Positions 24,001 to 26,019 of a DNA stretch of 33,301 nucleotides are shown here, piece after piece. The first letter of the stretch is position 1. The number at the start of each line of letters is the position of its first letter. This DNA comes from Escherichia coli (lineage in GTDB: Bacteria > Pseudomonadota > Gammaproteobacteria > Enterobacterales > Enterobacteriaceae), in the NCBI RefSeq assembly GCF_002854065.1, contig NZ_CP024149.1; one strand, written 5' to 3'. The position numbers were made by a program.

Positions 24001-26019
24001 TGACATCGGATTGTCTATCCTGCATTGTTCTTTACTGTCTGTAAGATCGGCGCTCATTCTTCCGGCGTTCTCCCGATACCAAAAAGACGGAACGCAAAAC
24101 GGCTTTCGATCCACCATTCAAAAATCTGCTCTGCGCAACCACAAACAGTTAAGGCGATCCATGCAGCAAGAACAACGTAACTACTGACATCTGCACCCAT
24201 GTACCAGGCGATAGTTAAACCCATCACTGCGATACCGCCTAAAAACTGCAACAAGAAACGAAATCCCGCAAGAATCCCCAATGGAATAACAACAACCAGA
24301 TAAAGGGAAGCAGCCAGAAGGTATCTGACAGGTGTCAGCAGATAAAAGAACCTGGATATTTTCTTTTTGTCAGAATAAACGGCATCATTTGCAACATCGG
24401 TTGAATGATCATTCATGCTGTCCCTGATTCTTTGAAAATCTACGATATTATCCTTCATATTGTTATGACCTCAATTTTCAGGTGGGTACATTTTATCAAA
24501 CATATTAGTAAACTCTGAGTCTTCCCTGGTATCGCCCTCATAACCAATTGTATAAGAGAACTTTAATTTATAAACTTTTCTCCCAATTTTTTCTGAAACT
24601 ACGAAACTTAAGTTCTTTACTTCCGTATGTTTCATGATTTCTTTTACTGATTTATTAAGAACATCTCTTTTAAAAGCAGGATAATCTGGATACTTATAAT
24701 CCTTCACCCCCCCCGCCCCTATTGTATAAAGATTCAATTCATCTTTAAGTTCATCTATTGTCATTTCAAAACTATTCGCGCGAGAATTATTACTATATAT
24801 TTTACGAATGAGTTGATATAGTGATGCAGCATTAACACTTGTCAGTCGAACAACAGATAATAAAACTTGCGTTGTATAACGTTTTTCTTCACCAATAAGT
24901 TTACATAAAAATCTTTTCGCTTCTTTCGTAAACTTGATCCCCACTCTACCTTCATTCCTGTAATAAGTAGAAAAAACAGTCAGACTCAAATTCATTGAAT
25001 CAGGTACATTACTTTTAGTGAACTTAAATCCCAAATCACTACTCAGTTCTAATATTTCATCATGTTTCAGCTTAAGAAGCGTCGTATCTAATATATTAGA
25101 GCCATCCCTCAAAGCAAGATAAGCCGCATCAGGCTTAACCTGAACCCATTTAATGTAATCGGCAACTGTCACATAAAATATGTGATCATCATCGAATTCA
25201 TTTTTAGAGTTTATCTGGCACATGGCTAAAAATAAGACTTTTTTAGCAGCCATAGGCAATGTTGACAGCGTTGAATTCAATTCATTTCGATGTCTCACTT
25301 TTGTTAAGCGAGAAAGGGAAGTCTTATTTGTCGTCATTCTCATTGTTCCAACACTCTTGATAATCAGACTTTAACACCAGAAACATGATATTACAACACA
25401 ATCAATATCATGTTTAACCGAGTATCTTCTCATGTTTCATATCTGTGATTTATCTCACAAAGGTAATCCATGCTCAAAATCCACACTGGATTCAAGGCAG
25501 ATTAACAACAGATTCAAAATAGATTCACCAGAAAGAACAACGAATTAGTATTCTTATGACACATTTTGTGGATATCACCGAGGAAGCTCTCATGTTTAAC
25601 CGAGGAAGCTCTCATGTTTAACCGAGGAAGCTCTCATGTTTAACCGAGGAAGCTCTCATGTTTAACCGAGGAAGTTATCATGTTTAACCGAGGAAGCTCT
25701 CATGTTTAGACAAAAAACACGCTTAAAATCAATAAATTAGAGCTACTCTAAGTTTTTAAGTTTTTAAGAAAAACAAGAAAAGATAAGGCTTTTAATGCGT
25801 GCGAATATTCAGGAACTGTGGATAACTCAACAAAACCAGCAACGATGATGGTTCCTTACCATAAATCTGTCCCCCGATGATTATTACCCGCAAGCTAAAA
25901 CAAACATCATCAATCATTAAAACTCATAACTTTCAATAACATAAAATCATCAAAAAAATATTTGATGCCTTATGTATCTCAATTTTCAAGACCATAAATT
26001 TGTCCCTAGTTAACTTTAA

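Follow-up and report, generated by a model that had tools for sequence, protein, structure and literature searches.

A phased array in the spacer of an IncX4 origin

Between the initiator gene pir and the iterons of its replication origin, the Escherichia coli plasmid studied here (contig NZ_CP024149.1, assembly GCF_002854065.1) carries a row of short repeats spaced by one turn of the helix, and the question raised by this locus is whether the array is a working part of the origin and, if so, which protein might read it. The whole stretch analyzed, 33,301 nt long and referred to below as the window, is the full sequence of an IncX4 plasmid of the kind that spreads resistance to colistin through mcr-1; pLHM10-1-MCR-1 (likewise 33,301 bp) matches it at 100% identity. 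In more than 280 plasmid records typed as IncX4, the 1.7 kb around the origin are also found with 100% identity. The origin itself is of a known kind, an exact copy of that of a very common plasmid; what is new in our results concerns the phased array. Considering all our observations, we favor, with a probability of roughly 55%, a reading in which positions 25368-25825 form the vegetative gamma-type origin and the pir control region of this IncX4 plasmid, with the array acting as a functional track coupled to the origin.

By searching the literature for IncX4 together with iterons, pir or origin, we found no description of the anatomy of this origin or of a phased array. Plasmids of the IncX4 pir-1 type are reported to be present at about 0.85 copies per chromosome, and it has been argued that this low copy number explains the success of IncX4 with mcr-1 (preprint 10.1101/2023.11.23.568506); a term search of that preprint returned no mention of iterons. 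A conserved array coupled to the iterons would offer a specific and mutable target for studying how the replicon sets its copy number and whether it senses the initiation potential of its host.

An earlier note on this DNA had described four copies of GATT(C/A)A spaced by 10-11 bp. The repeats are indeed there, but their starts (25489, 25500, 25511 and 25522) are exactly 11 bp apart and there are five units rather than four, since a further in-phase unit, AAATCCACA at 25477, comes ahead of them. The whole array (25477-25529, plus strand) can be written as five 9-mers separated by 2-bp spacers, AAATCCACA ct GGATTCAAG gc AGATTAACA ac AGATTCAAA at AGATTCACC, with units starting at 25477, 25488, 25499, 25510 and 25521, and it lies in an A+T-rich region (GC 0.33). 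By applying a motif-agnostic test for phased repeats (four copies of seven columns, periods of 9 to 13) to the whole 33.3-kb window, we found that the GATTCA array had the top score, 26 out of 28, which was reached in none of 400 dinucleotide shuffles. When 100,044 genomes were scanned for four RGATT in phase, the matches listed were unrelated tandem or interspersed repeats in unrelated phyla, without informative context.

We compared the anatomy of the origin with that of thirteen related origins, called lineages below. Within IncX4, five aligned variants differ by a single substitution over the 138 bp of the spacer, which is too little variation to draw conclusions from. Two sister lineages were compared as well, namely a Salmonella contig (L024) whose Pir is ~82% identical to that of IncX4, and a group (L025-L030 and L008) from E. 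coli, Klebsiella and Serratia assemblies and from metagenomes, whose Pir is ~76% identical. As for closer relatives, their metagenome or short-read contigs mostly break at the iterons, the P0002 contig having only 17 bp upstream of pir. In both sister lineages the iteron is nearly the same as in IncX4 and the spacer has diverged. Nevertheless, five GATT or AATC cores are found in exact 11-bp phase in IncX4 (X4), L024 and the L025-L030/L008 group. In X4 and L024, these four-base cores stand 98, 87, 76, 65 and 54 bp away from iteron 1; in L025, the corresponding distances run from 99 to 55 bp. Such a chain of five was never obtained in 20,000 shuffles of the spacer of each lineage, in which the longest chains had three or four cores. 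When the three spacers were compared with positions anchored, the core columns were 80-90% identical, with the central AT at 100%, against 42-45% for the other 40 columns. The cores are also restricted in sequence, with nine GATT, six AATC and neither GATC nor AATT (Fisher p = 0.0002).

Since the cores are conserved in phase and in distance to iteron 1 while their surroundings have diverged, the array has the properties of a selected element. Moreover, the array of L025 is 20 bp further from the operator of pir and its distance to iteron 1 is kept within 1 bp, which ties the array to the iterons and not to the promoter. More distant lineages (IncX8, L013/L017, IncX1, IncX2 and IncX3) do not have a comparable lattice; the IncX2 spacer, for example, carries AGATCT AGATCT AGATCA at 8-bp spacing, without the 11-bp GATT/AATC lattice. 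The lineages without lattice still carry a DnaA-like or IHF-like sequence beside iteron 1. Judged by these comparisons of sequence, the array is a conserved and origin-coupled functional track on one face of the helix, and a candidate for protein binding. Conservation in two sister lineages strengthens the proposal that a second protein-binding array is formed by the GATTCA repeats. The binders first considered were a bending protein, H-NS/Hha, or pi in a different mode. No match to the IHF consensus WATCAANNNNTTR lies inside 25477-25529 and, by direct reading, the repeat resembles neither half of the iteron.

The origin and the control region of pir

R6K is the prototype of IncX2, and the IncX4 origin has its parts in the same order, that is pir, a promoter overlapped by inverted half-iterons and an iteron, a spacer (the "enhancer" of R6K), 22-bp iterons, an IHF site, an A+T-rich segment and a DnaA box. 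The pir gene (24471-25343, minus strand), annotated as a replication initiation protein and with its start placed at 25337 in RefSeq, encodes a pi-type Rep_3 initiator of 290 aa when counted from the first ATG. Its product has WH1 and WH2 domains, with matches to Pfam Rep3_N and Rep3_C. Aligned over 293 residues with pi of the IncX2 plasmid pHP103, it shows 39% identity (E = 1e-71), and it also matches the solved pi-iteron complex PDB 2NRA ("PI protein", E = 6.5e-64).

Six tandem 22-bp iterons, candidate sites for pi monomers, occupy positions 25576-25707 on the plus strand. They were detected with Tandem Repeats Finder (TRF; period 22, 6.0 copies, 96% matches) and by a motif search in which AACCGAGGAAGCTCTCATGTTT, allowing up to two mismatches, gave six matches in the window against 0 expected. 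In R6K, two more origins at a distance, alpha and beta, depend on gamma; in the present plasmid, when up to three mismatches were allowed, no further iteron copy was found elsewhere in the window, half-sites not being searched for. The iterons share the conserved end CTCTCATGTTT with the R6K/IncX type, and 18 of their 22 positions are identical to the IncX2 iteron of pHP103, AACGTACTAAGCTCTCATGTTT, including all 14 positions of the conserved half. The number and place of the iterons and the 18/22 match to R6K given in the earlier note were thus correct. The differences from IncX2 lie in the variable half of the iteron, which has CGAGG instead of GTACT, and in the number of origin iterons, six against seven in R6K.

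On the pir side, iteron 1 is abutted by a DnaA-like box on the minus strand (25567-25575; TGTGGATAT in plus-strand letters, 8/9), whereas IncX2 has an IHF-type CTGTTGATAG beside its iteron 1. Boxes of the TGTG(G/A)A type abut iteron 1 likewise in L013, L017, L019, R485, pZF1, IncX3 and L014, and variants of TGTTGATAA or TGTTAATT stand next to it in L024, L025, IncX8 and IncX2. We also observed that this position grades across lineages from a DnaA box (TGTGGAxxx) to an IHF-type core (TGTTGATAA, TGTTAATT), at loci including L013, L017, L019, L020, L006, L023, L014 and L024. In R6K, the position abutting iteron 1 is presumably that of DnaA box 2 and ihf2.

On the other side of the iterons lies an ihf1-like site, AATCAATAAATTA (25727-25739, plus strand), which matches the IHF consensus perfectly and is, of three such matches in the window, the only one in the origin. 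It starts 20 nt past the last iteron, and the corresponding IncX2 site with one mismatch, AATCAGCAACTTA, lies 21 nt past its own last iteron. The A+T-rich segment that follows (25740-25816), the presumed unwinding element, has a GC content of 0.23-0.28 compared with 0.42 for the whole window, and TRF reports 2.5 copies of TAAGTTTT at 25749-25768. Within it, a 51-bp block (25747-25798) is found with ~92% identity in more than 1000 records of IncX3 and other IncX plasmids, and is probably a conserved unwinding element. At the outer edge of the segment, DnaA box 1 (25817-25825, minus strand) reads TGTGGATAA on the plus strand, that is TTATCCACA on the minus strand, a perfect box just where it had been noticed before. 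Matches to the DnaA consensus are not above chance over the window (4 found, 5 expected). In every IncX lineage examined, however, the box is present at this same edge as CTGTGGATAA, the IncX2 form being TGTGGACAA. The order of iterons, IHF site, A+T-rich segment and DnaA box, going away from pir, is the same in 13 lineages.

The pir promoter predicted by reading the sequence (25368-25396, minus strand) consists of a -35 hexamer TTGTAA (25396-25391), a 17-nt spacer and a -10 hexamer TAAAGT (25373-25368). The hexamers have the same positions in L024 (TTTACA-17-TAAAGT) and are weaker in L025, and the -35 sits relative to the inverted repeat as TTGACT does in IncX2; a strict sigma-70 scan did not report this promoter. 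The operator (25381-25415) is a perfect 12-nt inverted repeat of the conserved end of the iteron, AAACATGATATT / AATATCATGTTT, whose 100% complementary arms (25381-25392 and 25404-25415) are separated by 11 nt. One arm lies upstream of the -35 and the other covers the spacer and part of the -35 hexamer, an overlap of operator and promoter that we infer because the hexamers are conserved in L024. Equivalent inverted half-iterons are present in IncX2, IncX8, pZF1, L008, L013, L017 and L024, and every close relative has this arrangement; in R6K, they are bound by pi dimers, which repress pir. The right arm is directly abutted by a seventh, degenerate iteron, the operator iteron AACCGAGTATCTTCTCATGTTT (25416-25437, plus strand), which had been recognized in the first reading as a degenerate copy near the pir promoter and is 18/22 identical to the origin iteron.

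Between the operator iteron and the phased array, we found a CRP-like site, TGTGATTTATCTCACA (25444-25459), with a perfect TGTGA-N6-TCACA core, the only one in the window when 0.05 are expected per shuffled window. Its center is ~90 bp upstream of the predicted transcription start of pir. At the same position, L024 has TGTGAcacgcaTCACg, in which the half-sites are the same and the spacer has changed; this may point to catabolite control of pir. The core is absent from L025 and from more distant lineages, so that it is confined to X4 and L024 and is not shared with IncX2.

Since these parts match the plan of the R6K gamma origin one by one, the reading of the locus as an R6K-like gamma origin, proposed at first sight of the sequence, stands; it is supported by the IncX4 identity of the plasmid, by the pi-related Rep_3 initiator and by the order of parts in IncX2. 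To the features already noticed, our analysis adds the operator of inverted half-iterons, the ihf1-like site, the DnaA-like box beside iteron 1 and the CRP core. Apart from the array, the origin is of the textbook R6K type and is unchanged in hundreds of sequenced plasmids. By analogy with R6K, pi monomers would fill the six iterons, and iteron-bound pi, together with bending by IHF at 25727-25739 and DnaA at box 1, would open the A+T-rich segment and allow the helicase to be loaded. Pi dimers on the inverted half-iterons, together with the operator iteron, would cover the predicted promoter and repress pir, and pairing of iterons between plasmid copies would limit the copy number.

Candidate readers of the array

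In oriC of E. coli, cooperative binding that starts at a strong site fills four weak sites 2 bp apart (PMC6070618). The IncX4 array resembles the two rows of oriC (R5M-tau2-I1-I2 and R4-C1-I3-C2-C3) in its 9-mers, its 2-bp spacing, its single orientation and a better box nearby, and the likeness extends to single units, GGATTCAAG being comparable with I3 (TGATCCAAG) and AGATTCACC with tau2 (AGGATCACC). We therefore propose, tentatively and by analogy, that the array might be a track of weak DnaA sites able to bind DnaA-ATP cooperatively as in oriC. By scoring with a matrix built from 11 oriC sites (the oriC sequence being verified as 100% identical to E. coli chromosomes), we found that the X4 units reach 2.1-4.8 bits, within or above the range of the weak sites of oriC, and that, of 22 combinations of register and orientation, the one chosen for the array scores best in each of the three lineages. 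Nor does any other phased DnaA-like track of five units in the window score higher than that at 25477 on the plus strand, whose score is reached in 0.5-0.75% of window shuffles, although such shuffles ignore that the units are copies of one another, which inflates the result. Positions 3-7 and 9 of the family consensus, nRATYCAnA, agree with TTATCCACA, and the 8/9 DnaA-like box at 25567-25575 stands 38 bp from the array in the opposite orientation.

A number of observations nonetheless weigh against DnaA as the reader. From the distribution of single-site scores, we estimate that about one arbitrary repeat in three would attain this matrix score if its best register out of 22 were taken. When matches to the consensus were simply counted over five phased 9-mers, the same sum was found in 84% of window shuffles and in 4% of origin-region shuffles, so that by this measure the likeness to DnaA sites is no better than chance over the window and marginal over the origin region. 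The units of the sister lineages are poor DnaA sites on the oriC matrix (means of -0.7 bits in L024 and -0.2 bits in L025) and keep the RATY core without the CACA half. Unit 1 resembles a DnaA box in X4 only (AAATCCACA, 7/9), being TAATCTCAA in L024 and CAATCGCTA in L025, and one IncX4 variant has the substitution A25483G within it. The restriction of the cores to GATT and AATC is a pattern that a DnaA model does not predict, and this alternation has no counterpart in oriC. The array further differs from oriC in that it lies in a plasmid origin driven by a Rep_3 initiator and does not have a perfect anchor box.

Host DnaA sites beside Rep-bound iterons help opening and helicase loading in P1 oriR, RK2 oriV, F oriS and pSC101. 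These clusters are made of near-consensus DnaA boxes, whereas the units of IncX4 are weak, strictly phased and only partly box-like. In R6K, the replication enhancer binds DnaA, offsetting the inhibition caused by excess pi, and the putative DnaA track of IncX4, together with the DnaA-like box beside iteron 1, could be its counterpart. In such a mechanism, protein would assemble cooperatively on the array into a filament along one face of the helix, at five turns from iteron 1, and this filament would modulate the pi-iteron complex. If DnaA is the reader, the IncX4 clade would carry in its iteron-pir spacer a miniature oriC-style track for the oligomerization of DnaA-ATP, in helical register with the iterons, and initiation of the plasmid and its state of about one copy would be coupled to the DnaA-ATP cycle of the host. 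An oriC-style track of this kind in the IncX4 clade or, alternatively, a GATT/AATC lattice read by an undescribed factor is possible, but we hold it with less than even confidence.

As the array stands between the iterons and pir, on the side of the promoter, it could also serve the pir promoter as a regulatory element from upstream, in which a transcription factor reading direct repeats spaced by one turn of the helix, possibly with CRP at 25444-25459, would tune the supply of Pir and the copy number. Candidates would be a response regulator of the OmpR/PhoB type, or a plasmid protein of the ribbon-helix-helix or helix-turn-helix type. Response-regulator sites typically have direct repeats spaced by 10-11 bp, GATTC and GAATC units fit the GANTC motif read by F-type TraM, and the perfect CRP core between array and operator is kept in L024 with a different spacer. 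However, the array lies ~116-168 bp upstream of the predicted transcription start, beyond the usual positions of activators, and it is its distance to iteron 1, not that to the operator and promoter (+20 bp in L025), that has been kept. L025 moreover retains the array without the CRP core, the motif cluster is found nowhere else in the plasmid and, by reading, none of the response-regulator consensuses considered fits the repeat, all of which makes a role in pir regulation rather unlikely. We give a similarly low chance to an architectural role, in which a fixed bend or wrapping, or nucleation of a nucleoid protein (H-NS, a plasmid H-NS-like protein, Fis or IHF), would determine how the pi-iteron complex and the operator of pir are placed relative to each other. 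A period of exactly one helical turn, an A+T-rich region with a GC content of 0.33 and a low demand on sequence, with only the 4-bp RATY core being kept, would all suit such a role, and the R6K gamma origin binds IHF and many Fis molecules. Yet the array contains neither the IHF consensus nor, by direct reading, phased A-tracts, and the strict choice between GATT and AATC (p = 0.0002) points to base-specific reading and not to general bendability.

Finally, the array could have no function at all and be the remnant of a tandem duplication or slippage in an A+T-rich spacer. Its low TRF score (43, with 75% matches), the lack of a comparable lattice in IncX8, L013/L017, IncX2, IncX3 and IncX1, and a diversity within IncX4 that is too low to show selection are in keeping with this. 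On the other hand, three lineages keep five cores with the same phase and the same distance to iteron 1 in a background where the non-core columns are only 42-45% identical, and shuffling each lineage's spacer (0/20,000) did not produce a chain of five. Conserved cores with variable spacers are also the opposite of what a recent duplication leaves behind, and we consider this explanation very improbable compared with a functional track coupled to the origin.

We also compared the units, by eye, with consensuses for ArcA, OmpR, PhoB, PhoP, CpxR, TorR, PmrA/BasR, ArgR, Cra, Lrp and Fis, and none fits all of them. Partial fits were seen for the Cra half-site (TGAATC) and for GANTC, which we regard as leads only.

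Sequences flanking the replicon

On its upstream side, the replicon is adjoined by mcr-1 and its PAP2 gene. On the opposite side of the origin from pir, a gene for a J-domain (DnaJ-like) protein lies at 26770-27267, and it has the same place in IncX2, IncX8, L014 and L025-type lineages. DnaK and DnaJ activate pi, which makes a plasmid-borne co-chaperone gene next to the origin noteworthy.

About 250 bp past DnaA box 1, a GC-rich block at 26083-26135 (ttccgcttcctcgctcac...cggctgcggcgagcgg) is conserved in most IncX lineages and includes a terminator-like hairpin (26111-26135). It closely resembles the primosome assembly site beside the pBR322/ColE1 origin. A search against Rfam gave no RNA family match in the origin region; elsewhere in the window, it reported AgrB on the minus strand at 17477-17565 (58.7 bits, above the gathering score), presumably an antisense RNA of a dinQ-type toxin system.

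Further along, a GC-rich direct repeat of 300 nt is present at 26332-26631 and again at 28412-28711, the two copies being 99% identical and 2080 bp apart. One copy lies upstream of the J-domain protein gene and the other upstream of another gene. When taken as single-stranded DNA, the minus strand of the repeat folds better than shuffled sequences (z = -2.8), and the repeat may be a leader present in two copies, or else an element for single-strand initiation or with promoter function.

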